Below the pieces are notes generated by a model that was not told the DNA's origin, did no database searches, and saw nothing but the letters and a program-made list of their open reading frames with translations. Below, one piece after another: positions 4,013 through 64,000 of a stretch of DNA of 64,000 nucleotides. Location of the stretch: the NCBI RefSeq assembly GCF_988243305.1, contig NZ_OZ547136.1; one strand, given 5' to 3'. Positions within the stretch are counted from its first letter, which is position 1, and the number at the start of each line of letters is the position of its first letter. Position numbers and translations under genes: made by a program.

Positions 4013-5269
4013 ATGACCCTTTTAGCACTCGGTATCAACCATAAAACGGCACCTGTATCGCTGCGAGAACGTGTATCGTTTTCGCCGGATAAGCTCGATC
4101 AGGCGCTTGACAGCCTGCTTGCGCAGCCGATGGTGCAGGGCGGCGTGGTGCTGTCGACGTGCAATCGCACGGAACTTTATCTTAGCGTTGAAGAGCAGGA
4201 TAACCTGCAAGAGGCGTTAATCCGCTGGCTTTGCGATTATCACAATCTTAATGAAGAAGATCTGCGTAAAAGCCTCTACTGGCATCAGGATAACGACGCG
4301 GTTAGCCATTTAATGCGTGTTGCCAGCGGCCTGGATTCACTGGTTTTGGGGGAGCCGCAGATCCTCGGTCAGGTTAAAAAAGCGTTTGCCGATTCGCAAA
4401 AAGGCCATATGAAGGCCAGCGAACTGGAACGCATGTTCCAAAAATCTTTCTCTGTAGCGAAACGCGTTCGCACTGAAACAGATATCGGTGCCAGCGCTGT
4501 GTCTGTCGCTTTTGCGGCTTGTACGCTGGCGCGGCAGATCTTTGAATCGCTCTCTACGGTCACAGTGTTGCTGGTAGGCGCGGGCGAAACCATCGAGCTG
4601 GTAGCGCGTCATCTGCGCGAACATAAAGTACAGAAGATGATTATCGCCAACCGCACTCGCGAACGTGCCCAAATTCTGGCAGATGAAGTCGGCGCGGAAG
4701 TTATTGCCCTGAGTGATATCGACGAGCGTCTGCGCGAAGCCGATATCATCATTAGTTCAACTGCAAGCCCGTTACCGATTATCGGTAAAGGCATGGTGGA
4801 GCGGGCATTAAAAAGCCGTCGCAACCAACCAATGCTGTTGGTGGATATTGCCGTTCCGCGCGATGTTGAGCCGGAAGTTGGCAAACTGGCGAATGCTTAT
4901 CTTTATAGCGTTGATGATCTGCAAAGCATCATTTCGCACAACCTGGCGCAGCGTAAAGCCGCAGCGGTTGAGGCGGAAACTATTGTCGCTCAGGAAACCA
5001 GCGAATTTATGGCGTGGCTGCGTGCACAAAGCGCCAGCGAAACTATTCGCGAGTATCGCAGCCAGGCAGAGCAAGTTCGCGATGAGTTAACCACTAAAGC
5101 GTTAGCGGCCCTTGAACAGGGCGGCGACGCACAAGCCATTATGCAGGATCTGGCATGGAAACTGACTAACCGCTTGATCCATGCGCCAACGAAATCACTT
5201 CAACAGGCCGCCCGTGACGGGGATAACGAACGCCTGAATATTCTGCGCGACAGCCTCGGGCTGGAGTAG
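4013..5269 (+). CDS. hemA: glutamyl-tRNA reductase
   Basis: Track ORF 3815-5269; internal ATG at 4013 gives [21 protein letters not shown]..., the 418-aa HemA. Confidence 0.95.
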
Positions 5270-5309
5270 CAGTACATCATTTTCTTTTTTACAGGGTGCA
5301 TTTACGCCT

Positions 5310-6392
5310 ATGAAGCCTTCTATCGTTGCCAAACTGGAAGCCCTGCATGAACGCCATGAAGAAGTTCAGGCGTTGCTGGGTGACGCGCAAACTATCGCCG
5401 ACCAGGAACGTTTTCGCGCATTATCACGCGAATATGCGCAGTTAAGTGATGTTTCGCGCTGTTTTACCGACTGGCAACAGGTTCAGGAAGATATCGAAAC
5501 CGCACAGATGATGCTCGACGATCCTGAAATGCGTGAGATGGCGCAGGATGAACTGCGTGAAGCTAAAGAAAAAAGCGAGCAACTGGAACAGCAATTACAG
5601 GTTCTGTTACTACCAAAAGATCCTGATGACGAACGTAACGCCTTCCTCGAAGTCCGTGCCGGAACCGGCGGCGACGAAGCGGCGCTGTTCGCAGGCGATC
5701 TGTTCCGTATGTACAGCCGTTATGCCGAAGCCCGCCGCTGGCGGGTAGAAATCATGAGCGCCAGCGAGGGTGAACATGGTGGTTATAAAGAGATCATCGC
5801 CAAAATTAGCGGTGATGGTGTATATGGTCGTTTGAAATTCGAATCTGGCGGTCATCGCGTGCAACGTGTTCCTGCTACGGAATCGCAGGGGCGTATTCAT
5901 ACTTCTGCTTGTACCGTTGCGGTAATGCCAGAACTGCCTGACGCAGAACTGCCGGACATCAACCCGGCAGATTTGCGCATTGATACTTTCCGCTCGTCAG
6001 GGGCGGGTGGTCAGCACGTTAACACCACCGATTCGGCAATTCGTATTACTCACTTGCCGACCGGGATTGTTGTTGAATGTCAGGACGAACGTTCACAACA
6101 TAAAAACAAAGCTAAAGCACTTTCTGTACTCGGTGCTCGCATCCACGCTGCAGAAATGGCAAAACGGCAACAGGCCGAAGCGTCTACCCGTCGTAACCTG
6201 CTGGGGAGTGGCGATCGCAGCGACCGTAACCGTACTTACAACTTCCCGCAGGGGCGCGTTACCGATCACCGCATCAACCTGACGCTCTACCGCCTGGATG
6301 AAGTGATGGAAGGTAAGCTGGATATGCTGATTGAACCGATTATCCAGGAACATCAGGCCGACCAACTGGCGGCGTTGTCCGAGCAGGAATAA
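5310..6392 (+). CDS. prfA: peptide chain release factor 1
   Basis: 360-aa ORF with GGQ motif (SGAGGQHVN) and PAT tripeptide; hemA-prfA-prmC order. Confidence 0.97.
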
Positions 6393-51470: not shown

Positions 51471-52109
51471 ATGAAAAAGTTAACAGTGGCGGCTTTGGCA
51501 GTAACAACTCTTCTCTCTGGCAGTGCCTTTGCGCATGAAGCAGGCGAATTTTTTATGCGTGCAGGTTCTGCAACCGTACGTCCAACAGAAGGTGCTGGTG
51601 GTACGTTAGGAAGTCTGGGTGGATTCAGCGTGACCAATAACACGCAACTGGGCCTGACGTTTACTTATATGGCAACCGATAACATTGGTGTGGAATTGCT
51701 GGCAGCGACGCCGTTCCGCCATAAAATCGGCACCCGAGCGACCGGCGATATTGCAACCGTTCATCATCTGCCGCCAACACTGATGGCGCAGTGGTATTTT
51801 GGTGATGCCAGCAGCAAATTCCGTCCTTACGTTGGGGCAGGTATTAACTACACCACCTTCTTTGATAATGGATTTAACGATCATGGCAAAGAGGCGGGGC
51901 TTTCCGATCTCAGTCTGAAAGACTCCTGGGGAGCTGCCGGGCAGGTGGGGGTTGATTATCTGATTAACCGTGACTGGTTGGTTAACATGTCAGTGTGGTA
52001 CATGGATATCGATACCACGGCTAAGTACAAATCTGGTGTTACTACCGTAAAAGACTCGGTACGACTGGATCCGTGGGTGTTTATGTTCTCCGCAGGATAT
52101 CGTTTTTAA
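51471..52109 (+). CDS. ompW: outer membrane protein W
   Basis: 212-aa ORF with signal peptide MKKLTVAALAVTTLLSGSAFA and C-terminal aromatic residue (YRF) typical of beta-barrel OMPs. Confidence 0.96.
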   Translation: MKKLTVAALAVTTLLSGSAFAHEAGEFFMRAGSATVRPTEGAGGTLGSLGGFSVTNNTQLGLTFTYMATDNIGVELLAATPFRHKIGTRATGDIATVHHLPPTLMAQWYFGDASSKFRPYVGAGINYTTFFDNGFNDHGKEAGLSDLSLKDSWGAAGQVGVDYLINRDWLVNMSVWYMDIDTTAKYKSGVTTVKDSVRLDPWVFMFSAGYRF

Positions 52110-52154: not shown

Positions 52155-53285
52155 TCAAATGACCAGTTTTTTCCATTCCTTACCGCGTGCGTCGTTGTAA
52201 ATATCGGTCATTTTTTGATTCGAATGGCCTAGCAAAATTTTGGTATCAACCCCCTGCTCTCTGAACAATCGCTCTGATAAAGATCTCTGCTCATGGAAAG
52301 AGGGAGGGGTGCCATTAGCACGCCAGTTGTAATCCACAGAATCCCGGGCTTTTTTAAATGCAACGGTTAATGTTGCTGGCTTAACCATCCCGCCGCGCTT
52401 AGCTGTCCCTTTCGCGTGATGGTGGTGCAATAGCCACGGACTAAGAACGCAATCGCGGCAGGATGACACCACATCATCCAGGGTGAGATTTAATTTATCG
52501 CAACGCAGAGCCAGAGGGATGGCAATCCGGGTTCCTGTTTTTTGCTGTTCGACATGAAGATAACCATCCCGGATATCCGAAAATTGCATTTTGCAAATAT
52601 CTGAAAGGCGCTGGCCTGTCATCAGTGCCAGCAGCATACCGCGCTGTAAAAAGTAACCATCCTTTTCCGCTGCGTTATAAATCATCATCCACTCATCAAA
52701 AGTCAGTCGCTGTCTTGATATCCGCACCTGCGGTTTTTTTGCCGATTCTGCAGGGTTAAAGCCTGGCGGGACATCGCCCGTTTGCTGAGCTTCCCGGAAA
52801 ACATCGATCAGTACTTTCCTGAAAATTTGTCCCATTCTGTTATGTCCTCTGGCCTTGTACTCTTCCAGTACTGATACCACATCTTTTACGGTTATGGCAT
52901 CTAACGGTCTGGTGCCAAAACGTTCATCAAATACCCTGAGAGGGGCCGCTTTCTGTTTCAGCGTGTTGAGTTTGATCTCGCCGTTTTCATATCTTTCCTG
53001 TTGAATTTTTCTGTAATTATTCAGAAAAATGGTAACGGTTGATGAACCGCCGGTATCACTAATAATTTTCTCCTGCAGACTGAGCATTTGTTCCATTTGC
53101 TGCCGGGCAAGACGGCTGTTCGCTTCTGCTGCAATAGTTTCTGCCAGTTTCTGGTCAATACTGCCGAGACCGTGATTTTTGCCTGTTATGGGATGCCTGT
53201 AACGCCAGTAAACTTTGTTATTTCTTTTGTCAAAATACGGAGATAATCCCGGAACATCGGTTTTATATTTTCGCGGGCGCGCCAT
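52155..53285 (-). CDS. int: phage tyrosine integrase (lambda Int family)
   Basis: 376-aa ORF; C-terminal catalytic region with LGHSNQKMTDIYNDARG (Tyr nucleophile context); 3' end overlaps the hairpin adjacent to ompW. Confidence 0.9.
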   Translation of the reverse strand: MARPRKYKTDVPGLSPYFDKRNNKVYWRYRHPITGKNHGLGSIDQKLAETIAAEANSRLARQQMEQMLSLQEKIISDTGGSSTVTIFLNNYRKIQQERYENGEIKLNTLKQKAAPLRVFDERFGTRPLDAITVKDVVSVLEEYKARGHNRMGQIFRKVLIDVFREAQQTGDVPPGFNPAESAKKPQVRISRQRLTFDEWMMIYNAAEKDGYFLQRGMLLALMTGQRLSDICKMQFSDIRDGYLHVEQQKTGTRIAIPLALRCDKLNLTLDDVVSSCRDCVLSPWLLHHHHAKGTAKRGGMVKPATLTVAFKKARDSVDYNWRANGTPPSFHEQRSLSERLFREQGVDTKILLGHSNQKMTDIYNDARGKEWKKLVI

Positions 53286-57935: not shown

Positions 57936-58610
57936 TCAGTCTAAGTATTGATGTATTTGTGAAACTTTACCTTTAATGGTGTAACCACCATTAAGTTCGA
58001 TGGGTTTGTAAAGCGGATTCAGTGACAACAGATAGATGTTTGGTCCGTCAATCGCAACTTTTTTTAGTGTTACGTTTGGCGTTCCTTCCAATTGGATTAA
58101 GATTATTTTTCCCACCAGTTCTCTAATGTTACTTGAGCATGGTGTGATCAGCACGGTAGATCCGTCGGGGATGGTTGGGAGGCCGTTAGAGTTTGTCATC
58201 GCATCTCCCTCAACATGCAATAAAAAAGAGTTTTCAGCGGTTTTTGTCATGACATCAACCCAATTCTTAATACCAGGAATCTCGGTTACTGGACAACTCA
58301 TATCCCAATAACCAGCCTGTTCCCACGTTAAAACGGGCAACCGGGCGATGTTGTCACTAATGTAAGGGTACTGATTCAGACGCAGATCATCGGCTTTATC
58401 GTGACCGTCCTTTCCATAAAGAATCCATTCAGGAGATTTGGAAAGCAATTTTGACAGTAGATACAAATTCTCACCGTCAGGTTTTGAAGAGCCATTTTCC
58501 CATTTTGTTACGGATACACGAGATATGCCGATTGCTTTCGCAACCTGCTGTTGGGTTAATCCAACGTCTTTTCGACGATTCCGAATACGTTCGCTGATAG
58601 TGTTTTTCAT
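57936..58610 (-). CDS. prophage CI-like repressor (XRE HTH N-terminal domain plus S24/LexA-like autopeptidase C-terminal domain)
   Basis: Track ORF 57936-58709; start placed at ATG 58610 (MKNTISERIRNRRKDVGLTQQQVAKAIGISRVSVTKWENG...) by close resemblance to the P22 C2 N-terminus; C-terminal Ser/Lys dyad context (GDAM...KK). Confidence 0.85.
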   Translation of the reverse strand: MKNTISERIRNRRKDVGLTQQQVAKAIGISRVSVTKWENGSSKPDGENLYLLSKLLSKSPEWILYGKDGHDKADDLRLNQYPYISDNIARLPVLTWEQAGYWDMSCPVTEIPGIKNWVDVMTKTAENSFLLHVEGDAMTNSNGLPTIPDGSTVLITPCSSNIRELVGKIILIQLEGTPNVTLKKVAIDGPNIYLLSLNPLYKPIELNGGYTIKGKVSQIHQYLD

Positions 58611-58624
58611 GTAACCAATGTTAC
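58611..58624. promoter_or_regulatory. candidate right operator site (PRM-proximal)
   Basis: Palindrome GTAACCAATGTTAC immediately upstream of the repressor start. Confidence 0.55.
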
Positions 58625-58658
58625 TACCAAGTGATGTTGCTATGGTTGACATTGTTAT

Positions 58659-58672
58659 GTAACTATTGTTAC
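58659..58672. promoter_or_regulatory. candidate right operator site (PR-proximal)
   Basis: Palindrome GTAACTATTGTTAC adjacent to a TTGACA hexamer (58646-58651) upstream of the cro-like gene. Confidence 0.55.
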
Positions 58673-58701
58673 CCTTCTGCTCGAAATAACAGGAGAGTTT
58701 T

Positions 58702-58917
58702 ATGTTCAAAGATGATGTTCTGCGCTATTTCAAAAAAAAGCGACTAGTAGCTGAGGCTCTTGGAATTTCACATGTGGCTGTTGTGCGGTGGAAAGCAGTT
58801 ATTCCCAAACTTCGCGCAATGGAACTGGATGAAATTACTAACGGTGAATTGAAATACAACCCAGAACTTTACAAGAAGCAGGATAGCACCTCAAACGAAG
58901 GAAAGAATGATTCATGA
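58702..58917 (+). CDS. Cro-like/YdaS-family HTH DNA-binding protein
   Basis: 71-aa ORF with SD AGGAGAG; HTH segment LVAEALGISHVAVVRW; divergent from the repressor gene. Confidence 0.7.
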   Translation: MFKDDVLRYFKKKRLVAEALGISHVAVVRWKAVIPKLRAMELDEITNGELKYNPELYKKQDSTSNEGKNDS

Positions 58918-59339: not shown

Positions 59340-59361
59340 AAGCACGGTGTTCGGGGGTTTT

Positions 59362-60324
59362 ATGAGCAGCAAGCTTCATGGTCTTGTCTGGGAAGGGTGC
59401 GCCTTCACCGGCATGATCTTATCCAGGGTGGCGGTTATGGCCCGTCTTGCAGACTACAGCAATGACGAGGGCGTGTCATGGCCTGCCATTGAAACTATCC
59501 GGCGTCAGATCGGTGCAAGAAGTGAATCCACAGTGAAATCGGCTATTGCAGAACTGGCGAAAGAGGGCTGGCTGACGAAGGAAGAGCGTAAGGTCGGTGG
59601 GCGTAATGTAAGCAATATCTATCGGCTTAATGTGGAAAAACTCGAAGCAGCTGCGGCGGCGGCGCGTGAGTCATATAAACCGAAAAGAAAAATTAGCCCG
59701 GCAAAAAATGACCCGTTAACAGTTGACCCGTCAAATATTGACCCCTCAACGGTTGACCCGTCAAATTTTGATGGATCAACTGTTGATAAAAAACTGCCGA
59801 TTAGGGGGGCGATGATTGACCCCGATCCGTCAGTATTAAAACCTGATCCGTCAGATAAAAGATCTTCTTGTCCGGACGCTTCGCAACCGGACCCGCAGAC
59901 GGCTGAACAGGATTTTTTAACCCGACACCCTGACGCGGTTGTGTTCAGTGCGAAAAAACGCCAGTGGGGAAGTCAGGAAGATTTGGTGTGCGCACAGTGG
60001 ATCTGGGGACGAATCGTGAGTCTTTACGAGCAGGCGGCCAGCTATGATGGCGAGATCACTAGACCGAAAGAACCCAACTGGACAGCATGGGCCAATGACG
60101 TTCGCACAATGCGGATGCTGGATGGCAGAACTCACAGACAAATTTGTGAAATGTTTGGGCGTCTCCAGCGGGATTCGTTCTGGGTAAAAAACATCATGAG
60201 TCCGGCAAAACTCCGGGAAAAATGGGATGAACTGGTTATCCGCCTGGGGCGTTCGCCTGCGCAGCGTTGCGTGAATCACATTTCTGAACCGGACACTGAA
60301 ATTCCGCCGGGCTTCAGGGGGTAA
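59362..60324 (+). CDS. phage replication initiator (lambda O-like, HTH N-terminal domain) containing internal iteron-like repeats
   Basis: Track ORF from GTG 59347; ATG 59362 has a GGGGG SD; N-terminal winged-helix segment (LSRVAVMARLADYSNDEGVSWPAIETIRRQIG); central DPS-rich linker encoded by repeated TTGACCCGTCAA units. Confidence 0.6.
   Translation: MSSKLHGLVWEGCAFTGMILSRVAVMARLADYSNDEGVSWPAIETIRRQIGARSESTVKSAIAELAKEGWLTKEERKVGGRNVSNIYRLNVEKLEAAAAAARESYKPKRKISPAKNDPLTVDPSNIDPSTVDPSNFDGSTVDKKLPIRGAMIDPDPSVLKPDPSDKRSSCPDASQPDPQTAEQDFLTRHPDAVVFSAKKRQWGSQEDLVCAQWIWGRIVSLYEQAASYDGEITRPKEPNWTAWANDVRTMRMLDGRTHRQICEMFGRLQRDSFWVKNIMSPAKLREKWDELVIRLGRSPAQRCVNHISEPDTEIPPGFRG
59708..59790. repeat. iteron-like direct repeats (candidate phage replication origin) inside the replication gene
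   Basis: About five copies of a 12-15 bp unit (TTGACCCGTCAAAT and variants, each an internal dyad TTGAC/GTCAA) followed by an A-rich stretch GATAAAAAACTG. Confidence 0.6.
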
Positions 60325-60364: not shown

Positions 60365-60640
60365 GTGGCAAAAGTTTTTACACAAGAAGAGCGGGAAAAA
60401 ATTAAAGGGCTGATCGTGGAATTCGTACGCCTTAACGGACGAGGCACGATTCGGCAGTTATCGGATGAAATTGGTGTCAGTCATACGTCTGTCGGTCGTT
60501 TATGCATGGAGCTGGCCGCCAGTGGTGATGTTTACAATTCCGGTTACGGAGTATTCCCGTCTGAGCAGGCGCGCAAGGACTGGCAAAACGCCCGCAAAAA
60601 AACTCTCAAGGGCAAAGCTGAAGAAACCATCTGTGGTTGA
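60365..60640 (+). CDS. hypothetical small protein with predicted winged-helix/HTH segment
   Basis: 91-aa ORF from GTG with SD CAGGAGGAC; HTH-like GTIRQLSDEIGVSHTSVGRLCMELAASG. Confidence 0.5.
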   Translation: MAKVFTQEEREKIKGLIVEFVRLNGRGTIRQLSDEIGVSHTSVGRLCMELAASGDVYNSGYGVFPSEQARKDWQNARKKTLKGKAEETICG

Positions 60641-60788
60641 TCCGGACCTTATCTGGCTATTACCTGACGGAGAAATACGTCGCTACGACAGGCGTCAGAA
60701 CATAATCTGTCGCGAGTGCCGGAAGAGCGAAGTTATGCAGCGCGTACTGGCGTTTTATCAGGGGAATTTTCAGGAGGTAGCGCAGTGA
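60633..60788 (+). CDS. hypothetical micro-protein (51 aa), translationally coupled
   Basis: GTG at 60633 overlaps the upstream stop (GTGGTTGA); its stop overlaps the next start (GTGA); part of track ORF 60465-60788. Confidence 0.35.
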   Translation: MVDPDLIWLLPDGEIRRYDRRQNIICRECRKSEVMQRVLAFYQGNFQEVAQ

Positions 60789-61273
60789 GTGCACCGGCAA
60801 CCATTCTTGATATGTGCTGTGGCAGCCGTATGTTCTGGTTCGATAAGAATGACGACCGGGCGATATTTAGCGATATCAGAAAAGAAGAGCACACATTGTG
60901 TGATGGACGACGCCTGATTATCAGTCCTGACCTGATAGCAGATTTTCGAGCATTACCATTTGCAGACGCATCGTTTCCGGTTGTTGTATTCGACCCTCCG
61001 CATCTTGAGTGTGTTGGTGATAAAGCCTGGATGGGAAAGAAATATGGACGGTTGAATAAAGATACCTGGCGTGATGATTTGCGGCAGGGATTTAAAGAAG
61101 CTTTTCGTGTGTTGTGGCCACATGGCGTTCTGATTTTTAAATGGAATGAAACGCAAATATCTGTCCGCCAGATATTGGCACTAACCGACGCGAAACCAAT
61201 CATCAGCCAGCGCACCGGTAAGAACGATAAAACACATTGGATTATTTTTGTGAAGGAGGCGACCAGTGGGTAA
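60785..61273 (+). CDS. putative SAM-dependent (DNA) methyltransferase, orphan
   Basis: Track ORF 60716-61273; GTG at 60785 preceded by SD CAGGAGG; motif I-like ILDMCCGSRMF and motif IV-like FDPPHL; no adjacent restriction endonuclease gene. Confidence 0.5.
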   Translation: MSAPATILDMCCGSRMFWFDKNDDRAIFSDIRKEEHTLCDGRRLIISPDLIADFRALPFADASFPVVVFDPPHLECVGDKAWMGKKYGRLNKDTWRDDLRQGFKEAFRVLWPHGVLIFKWNETQISVRQILALTDAKPIISQRTGKNDKTHWIIFVKEATSG

Positions 61274-62135: not shown

Positions 62136-62304
62136 TTTTGGTTCAACTAAATATAACGCCAGTTTTGAAGAATGGCATGAACTGTTAATGGATTATGCAG
62201 AGTTACGCGGTGGAAGTGCCGCTGATGCTGAAGCATGGCGTGATGATTATGAAGCAGGGAAAACACCGGTCGAAGCATATTGTGATGAGTGGGGCGATGA
62301 ATGA
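62128..62304 (+). CDS. hypothetical acidic small protein (58 aa)
   Basis: ATG 62128 overlaps upstream stop (ATGGCTGA); MADFGSTKYNASFEEWHELLMDYAELRGGSAADAEAWRDDYEAGKTPVEAYCDEWGDE; below track size cutoff. Confidence 0.4.
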   Translation: MADFGSTKYNASFEEWHELLMDYAELRGGSAADAEAWRDDYEAGKTPVEAYCDEWGDE

Positions 62305-62660
62305 GCGAGATTAATTATCAGGAAGGGCATGAAAAGGTAGGGCAGGCAAAACCAGTGGCATGGCGATATCGCTACGTGAAAAAAGGCGTTACAGACTTTC
62401 AGGGGAAGCAGTGGGTTGGTGACTGGAAATATGTCCCGACAAAAGAGGATTGTAACGACAGACCAAACTATGAAATTCAGGCGTTATTCACGGCCCCGCC
62501 AGCTTCGGTGACATCAGAAGGACTGGTTAAAGCTGTGCGCTTTTATGAACAGGTACGGCGTGAGGATCCGCCAGTTGAAACCGGAGCATGGAAAGACGCT
62601 ATTGACTGGGTACTCAAGGAGGCCTGCCTGGTTGTAAACACGGGCATCAAAGGAGGCTGA
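62301..62660 (+). CDS. hypothetical phage protein
   Basis: 119-aa ORF, start overlaps upstream stop (ATGA). Confidence 0.45.
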   Translation: MSEINYQEGHEKVGQAKPVAWRYRYVKKGVTDFQGKQWVGDWKYVPTKEDCNDRPNYEIQALFTAPPASVTSEGLVKAVRFYEQVRREDPPVETGAWKDAIDWVLKEACLVVNTGIKGG

Positions 62661-63097: not shown

Positions 63098-63361
63098 ATG
63101 GCAACTTTGACAAAAAAAGAACAGGCATGGTTGAACGAATTACAGGACGTTCTTGATCGCTGTCCATCACCGAAAAAAATTGGTTTTTACACCATTGGCG
63201 ATAAAAGCATTTACCTGTATGACCTGCGCCGCATGGATGAAATCATGGAGGCTCTTGATAATCGTTCGTCAATGGATTGGTGTGTTGCTGTCCATGATAT
63301 GAATGCAGGGTTTGATGAAAAGATTTTGTTCCCCTCATCAGTTGAAAGCACTGCGGGTTAA
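63098..63361 (+). CDS. hypothetical phage protein
   Basis: 87-aa ORF from ATG 63098 (MATLTKKEQAWLNELQDV...) within track ORF 63008-63361. Confidence 0.4.
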   Translation: MATLTKKEQAWLNELQDVLDRCPSPKKIGFYTIGDKSIYLYDLRRMDEIMEALDNRSSMDWCVAVHDMNAGFDEKILFPSSVESTAG

Positions 63362-63371
63362 GGAGTAACAC

Positions 63372-64000
63372 ATGACCACTATTACCAAAGAACGTATTGA
63401 ATTGTTCATTAAAAACCCGCTTGAAAACGGGCTTACCCGTGGTGAACAAATGGAACTGGCACGGATTGCGCTGGCATCGCTGGAAGCAGATCCAGTTAAA
63501 CGAGTTAACTCAGATCAGATGCGCCGAGTCTGCTTAGAAGCTAATCGCCATTTAGATAAATATGACGCGATGGCGAAAGAGGTAAATAAGTTGCTTGGAC
63601 GCATCGCCCCGCCAGCGCCGGTAGTGCCGGAAGAAGCAACTCCGGAAAACGTAGAAATGCTCTCTGGCTATGTTTCCACGTACAAATTAACCGATAGCGA
63701 GCGCGATATTGCTGCCGAAATATGGAACGCCTGCCGCACCGCCATGCTTCAGTCCGGAAACTTTCGGGAAAGCAAGAATTCGTCAACCAATAATTTTCGG
63801 GAAATCCCGGAAGCGTCAACCAGCTCTCCGGTAACTCCGGCTCTTCTGCCTGGTGGTTTCACCATTGAGGAGGCGAAGGAATTACATGAAGACCTGGTAC
63901 GCAGCCACATAAGCAAGGCCTTAAGTGGCGAAAAGATGAAAAAGAAAGATCGCGATGCTGATTTGCGCTGGATTCATGGCGTTATAGTTCAGGCAGCGTG
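63372..64000 (+). CDS. hypothetical phage protein, partial (runs off window end)
   Basis: ATG 63372 with SD AAGGAG; open frame MTTITKERIELFIKNPLENGLTRGEQMELARIALASLEADPV... without stop to 64000. Confidence 0.5.
   Translation, partial: MTTITKERIELFIKNPLENGLTRGEQMELARIALASLEADPVKRVNSDQMRRVCLEANRHLDKYDAMAKEVNKLLGRIAPPAPVVPEEATPENVEMLSGYVSTYKLTDSERDIAAEIWNACRTAMLQSGNFRESKNSSTNNFREIPEASTSSPVTPALLPGGFTIEEAKELHEDLVRSHISKALSGEKMKKKDRDADLRWIHGVIVQAA

Follow-up and report, generated by a model that had tools for sequence, protein, structure and literature searches.

The window analysed here, a 64,000-nucleotide (nt) stretch of contig NZ_OZ547136.1 (RefSeq assembly GCF_988243305.1), ends inside a lambdoid prophage and inside one of its genes, an open reading frame (ORF) that starts at an ATG at position 63372 and runs off the window edge after 209 codons. 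Protein and DNA homology to this gene both break piecewise, at shared points, and on that basis, together with a structural model, its predicted 300-residue product is a beads-on-a-string mosaic in which helical modules A to D and a C-terminal DUF551 domain are joined by three low-confidence linkers. We propose that the linkers are joints at which modules were exchanged among prophage genes; taken jointly, the identity of the gene and this reading of its linkers have a probability of roughly 0.8. The middle linker contains an in-frame tandem repeat which is itself shared widely among prophage genes.

The frame is open on the plus strand from 63372 to 64000 and is preceded by a ribosome binding site (AAGGAG, 63360–63365, plus strand, 6 nt 5′ of the start codon), around which the genes are closely packed, the upstream ORF ending at 63361. 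We completed the gene by way of E. coli genomes that are 99.9–100% identical across this stretch, the last kilobase of the window being 99.9% identical to several E. coli chromosomes. In strain EC931, 701 nt align to the window with a single, synonymous difference, such that the 209-codon protein is identical, and the complete ORF is intact (L001:9373-10275): it extends for 300 codons and reaches its stop, with an expected C-terminal end of ...HWMPLPEPPQEVNQ-stop. The window therefore appears to hold the 5′ two-thirds of an intact, expressed-looking prophage gene. A sequence-only reading had described a partial ORF of no assignable function whose partner genes lay out of view. All of this stands, and extension in EC931 now places hokD, DUF968, RusA and the Q antiterminator downstream.

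The only family assignments of the 300-residue protein are DUF551 (PF04448) and PHROG 60, both of unknown function. The DUF551 match covers residues 231–296, beyond the window end, and is complete (75.6 bits against a cut-off of 22, E = 5.7e-21, model positions 1–68 of 68); the 209 residues within the window have no DUF551 match in Pfam. An identical 300-residue protein is already public on 670 contigs under the NCBI name "DUF551 domain-containing protein". The gene is, in short, an already catalogued and ordinary member of a family of unknown function. The same early reading would have been overturned by a match to a phage antirepressor or replication accessory protein, and none was found: antirepressor families (Ant/KilAC, Bro-N and similar) were absent from Pfam and PHROGs for the full-length protein and from NCBIfam for the 209-residue part, and nothing resembling a replication accessory protein appeared in Pfam, PHROGs, PADLOC or the PDB with the full-length protein or in NCBIfam with the partial one. 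The PADLOC-DB defence models gave 0 families at E up to 1. Against the PDB, a search with the single full-length sequence gave zero matches, one with the DUF551 profile gave a single match at chance level (E = 0.38), and Foldseek with the whole model gave nothing (best E = 0.34), the last being expected for a multi-domain model with a predicted template modelling score (pTM) of 0.30. The NCBIfam matches of the partial protein were noise only, and a weak Pfam match to DUF1843, below threshold, was ignored.

The breakpoints that define the mosaic come from two sources. Among 1.84 billion representatives searched exhaustively with HMMER there are 2,204 relatives at E up to 1e-3, which match piecewise; 598 phage records encode relatives. 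Protein breakpoints were located by BLASTP between the query and the 150 best representatives, an end being counted only where the subject runs on for more than 15 residues with unrelated sequence. By this definition the ends of homology cluster at residues 41–45, 126–130, 156–160 and 216–220, and the starts at 26–30, 76–85, 151–160 and 211–225. The DNA searches covered 5,426 complete E. coli genomes, with breakpoints read from the 60 matches listed, of about 6,800 places; among the matches listed, homology starts or stops at gene nt 126, 234, 352, 380, 460–467, 650–667 and 720. Short islands (nt 352–467 and 661–722) recur alone in otherwise unrelated genes, annotated as DUF551, as ead/Ea22-like or as dATP/dGTP pyrophosphohydrolase. 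At the protein level, 111 of the 150 representatives contain DUF551, five are Ead_Ea22 fusions and four are dATP/dGTP pyrophosphohydrolase fusions. A search for published accounts of junction sequences in lambdoid mosaics gave no specific result.

We compared these breakpoints with an AlphaFold2 model built using a 50-sequence alignment of diverse relatives. The model has a mean predicted local distance difference test score (pLDDT) of 72 and a pTM of 0.30, such that local structure is confident while the global arrangement is not fixed. It contains short helices and no long coiled coil, and its pLDDT falls below 50 solely at residues 76–82, 130–153 and 221–226, the middle stretch coinciding with the repeat. 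The order from the N-terminus is module A, module B, linker L1, module C, linker L2 with the repeat, module D, linker L3 and the DUF551 beta domain.

Module A (residues 1–41; 63372–63494, plus strand, as are all the features of the gene) is an N-terminal cap, MTTITKER...ELARIALASLEADPV, with predicted helices at 6–14 and 23–38. Several PHROGs match it alone (phrog_3323 at residues 1–47, phrog_10451 at 1–34), DNA homology in many genomes is confined to gene nt 1–126, and protein homology ends at residues 41–45 in five representatives and begins at 26–30 in 13. Module B (residues 42–78; 63495–63605) is a variable pair of predicted helices (47–59 and 61–74) that is exchanged for unrelated sequence in relatives, as seen in alignment A2 and in comparisons with the phages P13374 and PhiR5_1. 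The proline-rich linker L1, APPAPVVPEE (residues 79–88; 63606–63635), overlaps the first low-confidence stretch; homology starts cluster here (residues 76–85, gene nt 234), and the motif (A/T)PPxPVVP is conserved throughout the family. Module C (residues 89–127; 63636–63752) consists of two predicted helices (91–103 and 108–128) with EIWNACRTAMLQ at the end. This end, WNACRxAMLQ, is widely conserved, with 62 contexts of WNACRxAML in 150 diverse representatives. Linker L2, SGNFRESKNSSTNNFREIPEASTSSPVTPALLPGG (residues 128–161; 63753–63854), is of low complexity and predicted to be disordered, with a P/S/T/N/G/Q fraction of 0.47–0.67 in 15-residue windows starting at residues 126–151, and is flanked by breakpoints in the protein (126–130 and 151–160) and in the DNA (gene nt 352/380 and 460–467). 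Module D, a predicted helical hairpin (helices 165–184 and 191–221) that begins FTIEEAKELHEDLVRSHISKALSGEKMKKKDRDADLRWIHGVIVQAA..., spans residues 162–221, of which the window holds those up to 209 (63855–64000). It recurs as an independent block, as query residues 150–217 in several representatives and as gene nt 460–686 in the DNA searches. Linker L3, SGNSPATPDGW, joins module D to DUF551, in which strands are predicted at 244–252, 257–265 and 287–290.

The repeat within L2 was placed by the sequence-only reading at about 63760–63830, with two strings said to occur twice, and we recover it at 63759–63824 with both strings where they had been reported. It consists of two units, NFRESKNSSTN (residues 130–140; 63759–63791) and NFREIPEASTS (residues 141–151; 63792–63824), and is the sole direct-repeat family in the frame, with 63759–63789 and 63792–63822 aligning over 31 nt at 77% identity and a start-to-start spacing of 33 nt, or 11 codons, in frame. 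The string TTTCGGGAAA lies at 63762–63771 and 63795–63804 and nowhere else in the 64-kb window (0.21 copies expected), and CGTCAACCA lies at 63781–63789 and 63814–63822. Chance was assessed by ungapped self-alignment (+1/−1, offsets 6–120) against 1000 codon shuffles and 1000 base shuffles: the observed score of 17 was reached in 1/1000 and 0/1000, respectively. Under stricter +1/−2 scoring nothing but the exact 10-mer seed remains, and alone it lacks significance (56/500 and 24/500); Tandem Repeats Finder at its thresholds does not report the repeat because there are merely two, imperfect copies. The repeat is real and exceeds chance. Its reality is further supported by rare relatives that have lost exactly one 11-residue unit, namely two of the 120 closest proteins (P0063 and P0104), with NFRESKNSSTSSP and NFREIPEASTSS at the contraction. 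The losses lie in different registers, the pattern that unequal exchange between the copies would give. A third relative, P0077 (389 residues), has duplicated a larger internal block, comprising the end of module C, the twin-NFRE linker and the start of module D, and larger unequal exchanges accordingly occur in the family too.

Apart from these rare losses, the copy number of the repeat is nearly constant. Two NFR motifs are present in 116 of the 120 closest proteins, one further protein having only a substitution within a motif, and no expansion of the 11-residue unit was seen among them. Of the 5,426 genomes, 1,069 (about 20% of complete E. coli) contain the 116-nt segment made up of the helix end and the repeat cassette. 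It is found at 1,764 places in all, 112 of them on plasmids, and a single genome may hold as many as six copies. As at least 80% of its length is covered in 1,077 of 1,098 records, the two-unit length hardly varies. The sequence of unit 1 is NFRE[N/S]K[N/D]SST and that of unit 2 is NFR[E/K]I[P/A/S/T]E[A/T]ST in every lineage, and because the units remain distinct the duplication must predate the spread of the cassette. The repeat is, by these comparisons, best described as an old and stable tandem duplication of an 11-codon unit.

Among the 62 WNACRxAML helices of the diverse representatives, 22 precede a cassette with two intact N-F-R units and four more precede one with a substituted motif, the remainder carrying unrelated linkers. 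On its other side the cassette joins this helix to at least five downstream modules: module D, 'SEVLSAILKVARVRADFDDFDGDRRG', DUF551 directly, 'DGLSTVCAEAYQ' and 'DGWVMVPVEPT'. On the 96.8-kb plasmid NZ_CP023961.1 (L007:3165-4049), an intact 294-residue ORF has the same cassette and an identical DUF551 domain, with another middle module. The plasmids among the matches listed are of about 90–100 kb, and the copy examined sits amid ead/Ea22-like and small hypothetical genes; these cassette-bearing plasmids may be phage-plasmids.

Nine unique DNA copies of the cassette give synonymous (pS) and nonsynonymous (pN) values of 0.084 and 0.091, a ratio of 1.09, and purifying selection at the amino-acid level appears to be absent. 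Blocks of the cassette that are invariant in protein are also invariant at synonymous sites, and the conservation therefore looks like recent shared DNA ancestry rather than selection on the peptide. A comparison with the Stx2 phage P13374 points in the same direction: the 116-codon block from the cassette to the DUF551 start differs at 8 nt, and six of the six resulting amino-acid changes fall in L2 or L3, with zero in module D. Together, these sequence and model data fit a flexible tether under relaxed constraint that is also a mosaic joint.

The DUF551 domain is predicted with high confidence when modelled alone (pLDDT 90.3, pTM 0.76). A search of this model against BFVD returned DUF551-named models from many phages at probability 1.00 (best E = 6.7e-4). 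The domain has a frame, WIxxSERMP at the start and HWMPLPxxP at the end (here HWMPLPEPP), all residues of which are present in the protein described here. In an alignment of 40 diverse DUF551 domains (A4), P19, W67 and P71 are invariant, and W11, I12, S15, E16, R17, M18, P69 and P74 are at least 90% conserved. The middle, by contrast, is hypervariable in sequence and in length, with 30–50 residues that are wholly different between subtypes. As far as sequence allows one to judge, a conserved frame around a variable middle resembles variable binding domains. Within the DUF551 family (PF04448 / IPR007539, which includes PHROG 60) the protein differs in nothing of kind; what sets it apart is a 230-residue modular N-terminal extension, many DUF551 members being stand-alone proteins of 65–120 residues.

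This architecture suggests how the protein might work. It could be an early, non-essential accessory factor that acts by protein–protein binding. Scaffolding or self-association would then fall to the helical N-terminal modules, and contact with a target in the host or phage to the DUF551 head, whose frame is conserved and whose middle is hypervariable. The linkers would tether the modules to one another, and at the DNA level they would offer short patches of homology for module exchange. We regard a binding-adaptor function of this kind as tentative, at rather less than even odds.

The best-supported alternative for function is that the protein works like Ea22 of lambda and the Stx phages, as an oligomeric early protein that biases the decision towards lysogeny. 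Ea22 has a coiled coil between a short N-terminus and a portable C-terminal domain, and is tetrameric and pro-lysogenic (PMC10834534; PMC7093339); an Stx variant has DUF551 as its C-terminal domain (PMC10834534). Deletion of ea22 lowers lysogenisation in lambda and, at a multiplicity of infection of 5 and 10 but not 1, in phi24B, and it shortens the latent period in both phages (PMC7093339). Both kinds of gene are early phage accessory genes, and the two proteins share a plan in which a short N-terminal segment is followed by a helical region, a flexible segment and a portable C-terminal domain; five relatives fuse modules of our protein to an Ead_Ea22 domain, and some relatives combine Ead_Ea22 with DUF551. 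Moreover, full-length relatives (55–57% identity) lie in the exo–xis region of Stx phages, directly beside ead/Ea22-like genes. The closest described of these is ORF12 of P13374, the E. coli O104:H4 outbreak phage (YP_006906829.1), which is 57% identical over its full length. It shares the cassette with two NFR units, module D and a C-terminal DUF551 domain, its DNA being 97.7% identical from the cassette to the DUF551 start, but it differs in modules B and C and in a DUF551 middle of another subtype. Its gene is also placed differently, in the leftward exo–xis region, and the PhiR5_1 homologue likewise lies between exo and xis, next to ead/Ea22-like genes.

Several observations nevertheless make an Ea22-like role unlikely. 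The full-length protein has no Pfam match to Ead_Ea22 (PF13935) at E up to 1, in a scan in which the lambda Ea22 control scored 100.9 bits, and BLASTP against lambda Ea22 gives E = 7.4, which is no similarity. The gene lies in the pR operon rather than between exo and xis, and the model lacks the long coiled coil. The experimentally tested proteins are, moreover, not homologues of this one. The 'Ea22' label carried by the PhiR5_1 homologue was rejected as evidence of family membership, as our protein has neither an Ead_Ea22 domain nor similarity to lambda Ea22.

A second comparison is with YfdS of the E. coli K-12 cryptic prophage CPS-53, the only DUF551 protein with phenotypes in the literature searched. 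Its deletion causes H2O2 sensitivity, and multicopy inhibition of DnaA-dependent initiation depends on YfdQ and YfdR together with either YfdS or YfdT (PMC4776307). YfdS resembles our protein in having a C-terminal DUF551 domain after a helix, but it is 120 residues long, shows 29% identity over 52 residues (pairwise E = 0.024), lacks modules A–D and the linker cassettes, and has partners, YfdQ and YfdR, that are not found in the operon described here. We rejected a transfer of function from so distant a relative. Separately, P13374 carries a DUF2303 (YfdQ-like) gene and a DUF551 gene in one exo–xis neighbourhood (L004:2232-3053 and 5001-5897), which recalls yfdQ-yfdR-yfdS of CPS-53 and may reflect a conserved functional pairing.

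We also considered whether the linkers are more than joints. The three cassettes (APPAPVVP, the twin NFRE ending in SPVTP, and SGNSPxTPDGW) could form a maintained 'splice grammar' as opposed to being mere leftovers of recombination. If so, short patches of DNA homology encoding disordered peptide would let lambdoid prophages combine modules and DUF551 heads, and new target specificities could arise quickly. We think this doubtful, somewhat more so than an Ea22-like role.

Still less probable is a docking role, in which the twin NFRE would be a functional short linear motif, present twice and bound by a protein of the host or phage, rather than just a tether. In its favour, all nine divergent DNA copies keep N-F-R and S-S-T unchanged in each unit, the cassette is kept before at least five different downstream modules, and the two-unit state is almost never lost. 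The pN/pS ratio of about 1.09 over the cassette, with blocks that are equally invariant at synonymous sites, speaks instead for shared DNA ancestry; 34 of the 62 WNACR-helix contexts have unrelated linkers; and the natural one-unit deletions of P0063 and P0104 occur in otherwise intact proteins.

RefSeq records raise the quite different idea of a pseudogene in decay, or of several gene fragments in place of one ORF. In EC931, the 96.8-kb plasmid and other strains, PGAP gives pieces of the ORF the label 'incomplete; partial in the middle of a contig', and we noticed that it splits the ORF family in the same manner in five records (L001, L007, L008, L009 and L013), giving two 'partial' pieces and a short DUF551 coding sequence, which in EC931 and the plasmid is the 62-residue WP_032352565.1. 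However, the frame runs uninterrupted to its stop codon in each of the two records that were checked (300 residues in L001, 294 in L007), and other sources call the full 300-residue protein on the 670 contigs mentioned above. The annotated pieces (gene nt 1–126, 364–465 and 715–903) coincide with the mosaic homology islands, which suggests that the split is a systematic artefact of local protein matches. We consider decay very improbable; the splitting of intact ORFs in RefSeq inflates prophage pseudogene counts.

Two further readings of the repeat are scarcely credible. A slippage-prone contingency tract, in which copy number would alter the protein, could draw on the two relatives that have naturally shed exactly one unit, each in its own register, and on the larger duplication in P0077, but we reject this variable-tract reading given the constancy of the two NFR motifs in 116 of 120 proteins, a unit never expanded there, the coverage of the 116-nt cassette in 1,077 of 1,098 E. 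coli records and the presence of just two units, 77% identical, in which Tandem Repeats Finder finds nothing. As for a nucleic-acid signal, either a pair of palindromic TTTCGGGAAA sites 33 bp apart for a DNA-binding protein or an RNA structure, TTTCnnGAAA is indeed a small palindrome whose only two occurrences in the 64-kb window are separated by three helical turns, but the RNA fold of 63735–63850 is ordinary (z = −0.64), Rfam gives no match inside the gene at E up to 1, variants that are common in nature break the palindrome of unit 2 (GAA to AAA, giving NFRK), and the 10-mer is simply the F-R-E codons copied by duplication.

We return to the mosaic prophage gene and its surroundings. The window runs through chromosomal opp-cls-kch-tonB-ompW and then into the lambdoid prophage, whose integrase (52155–53285, minus strand) lies directly downstream of the adjoining ompW (51471–52109). 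There follow a LexA/CI-like repressor (57936–58709, minus strand), cro and a YdaT-family gene, a rightward O-like replication initiator (59347–60324, phrog_391) and, also rightward, a truncated DUF977 gene and an S-adenosylmethionine (SAM)-dependent methyltransferase (60716–61273). Tightly packed small genes of unknown function come next, DUF7167 and DUF4014 among them, and our gene is the final member of that run. It lies on the rightward strand downstream of cro, the O-like gene and nin-like genes, and no terminator-like site was found on the plus strand from the upstream neighbours through the end of the gene. Given this gene order and the lack of such a site, the gene is most simply assigned to the pR early transcript.

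Several features of the neighbourhood deserve mention in their own right. The EC931 prophage is Qin-like: on the left it carries homologues of dicB, ydfB and ydfC, and on the right hokD, DUF968, RusA, Q, three tRNAs and iraM. It differs from the window at 60365–61273, where the DUF977 gene encodes 91 residues here and about 140 in EC931, and where the 185-residue SAM-dependent DNA methyltransferase (phrog_954) that follows is missing from that position in EC931. This protein is annotated as 'class I SAM-dependent methyltransferase' in E. coli 55989, and no Pfam model matches it. Within the O-like gene, at 59688–59762, four overlapping 30-nt units at 15-nt spacing form TTGACCC(G/C)TC-type iterons that encode DPLTVDPSNIDPSTVDPSN. 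The lambda ori sits inside the O gene, and by analogy these iterons are plausibly the replication origin of the prophage; an Rfam match to mir-250 that coincides with the site is at chance level (E = 0.26). Finally, the neighbouring ORF at 62301–62660 (119 residues) matches phrog_660 (E = 1.8e-42), as do residues 1–133 of our protein. A kinship between the two was considered and dropped, there being no pairwise similarity and phrog_660 being heterogeneous; that family appears to be a chain of mosaic pieces.

The analysis adds to the original description of this frame a family, a set of downstream partner genes and an account of the repeat as the duplicated unit of a conserved inter-module linker. 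For general biology its significance is small, the family being catalogued and abundant in E. coli prophages and Stx phages. It is, though, a clear case of intragenic mosaicism with joints in predicted disordered linkers, and is useful to bear in mind when phage proteins are clustered or named, because PHROG and Pfam matches are piecewise. If DUF551 heads bind host targets, the architecture would help explain how specificities are swapped.

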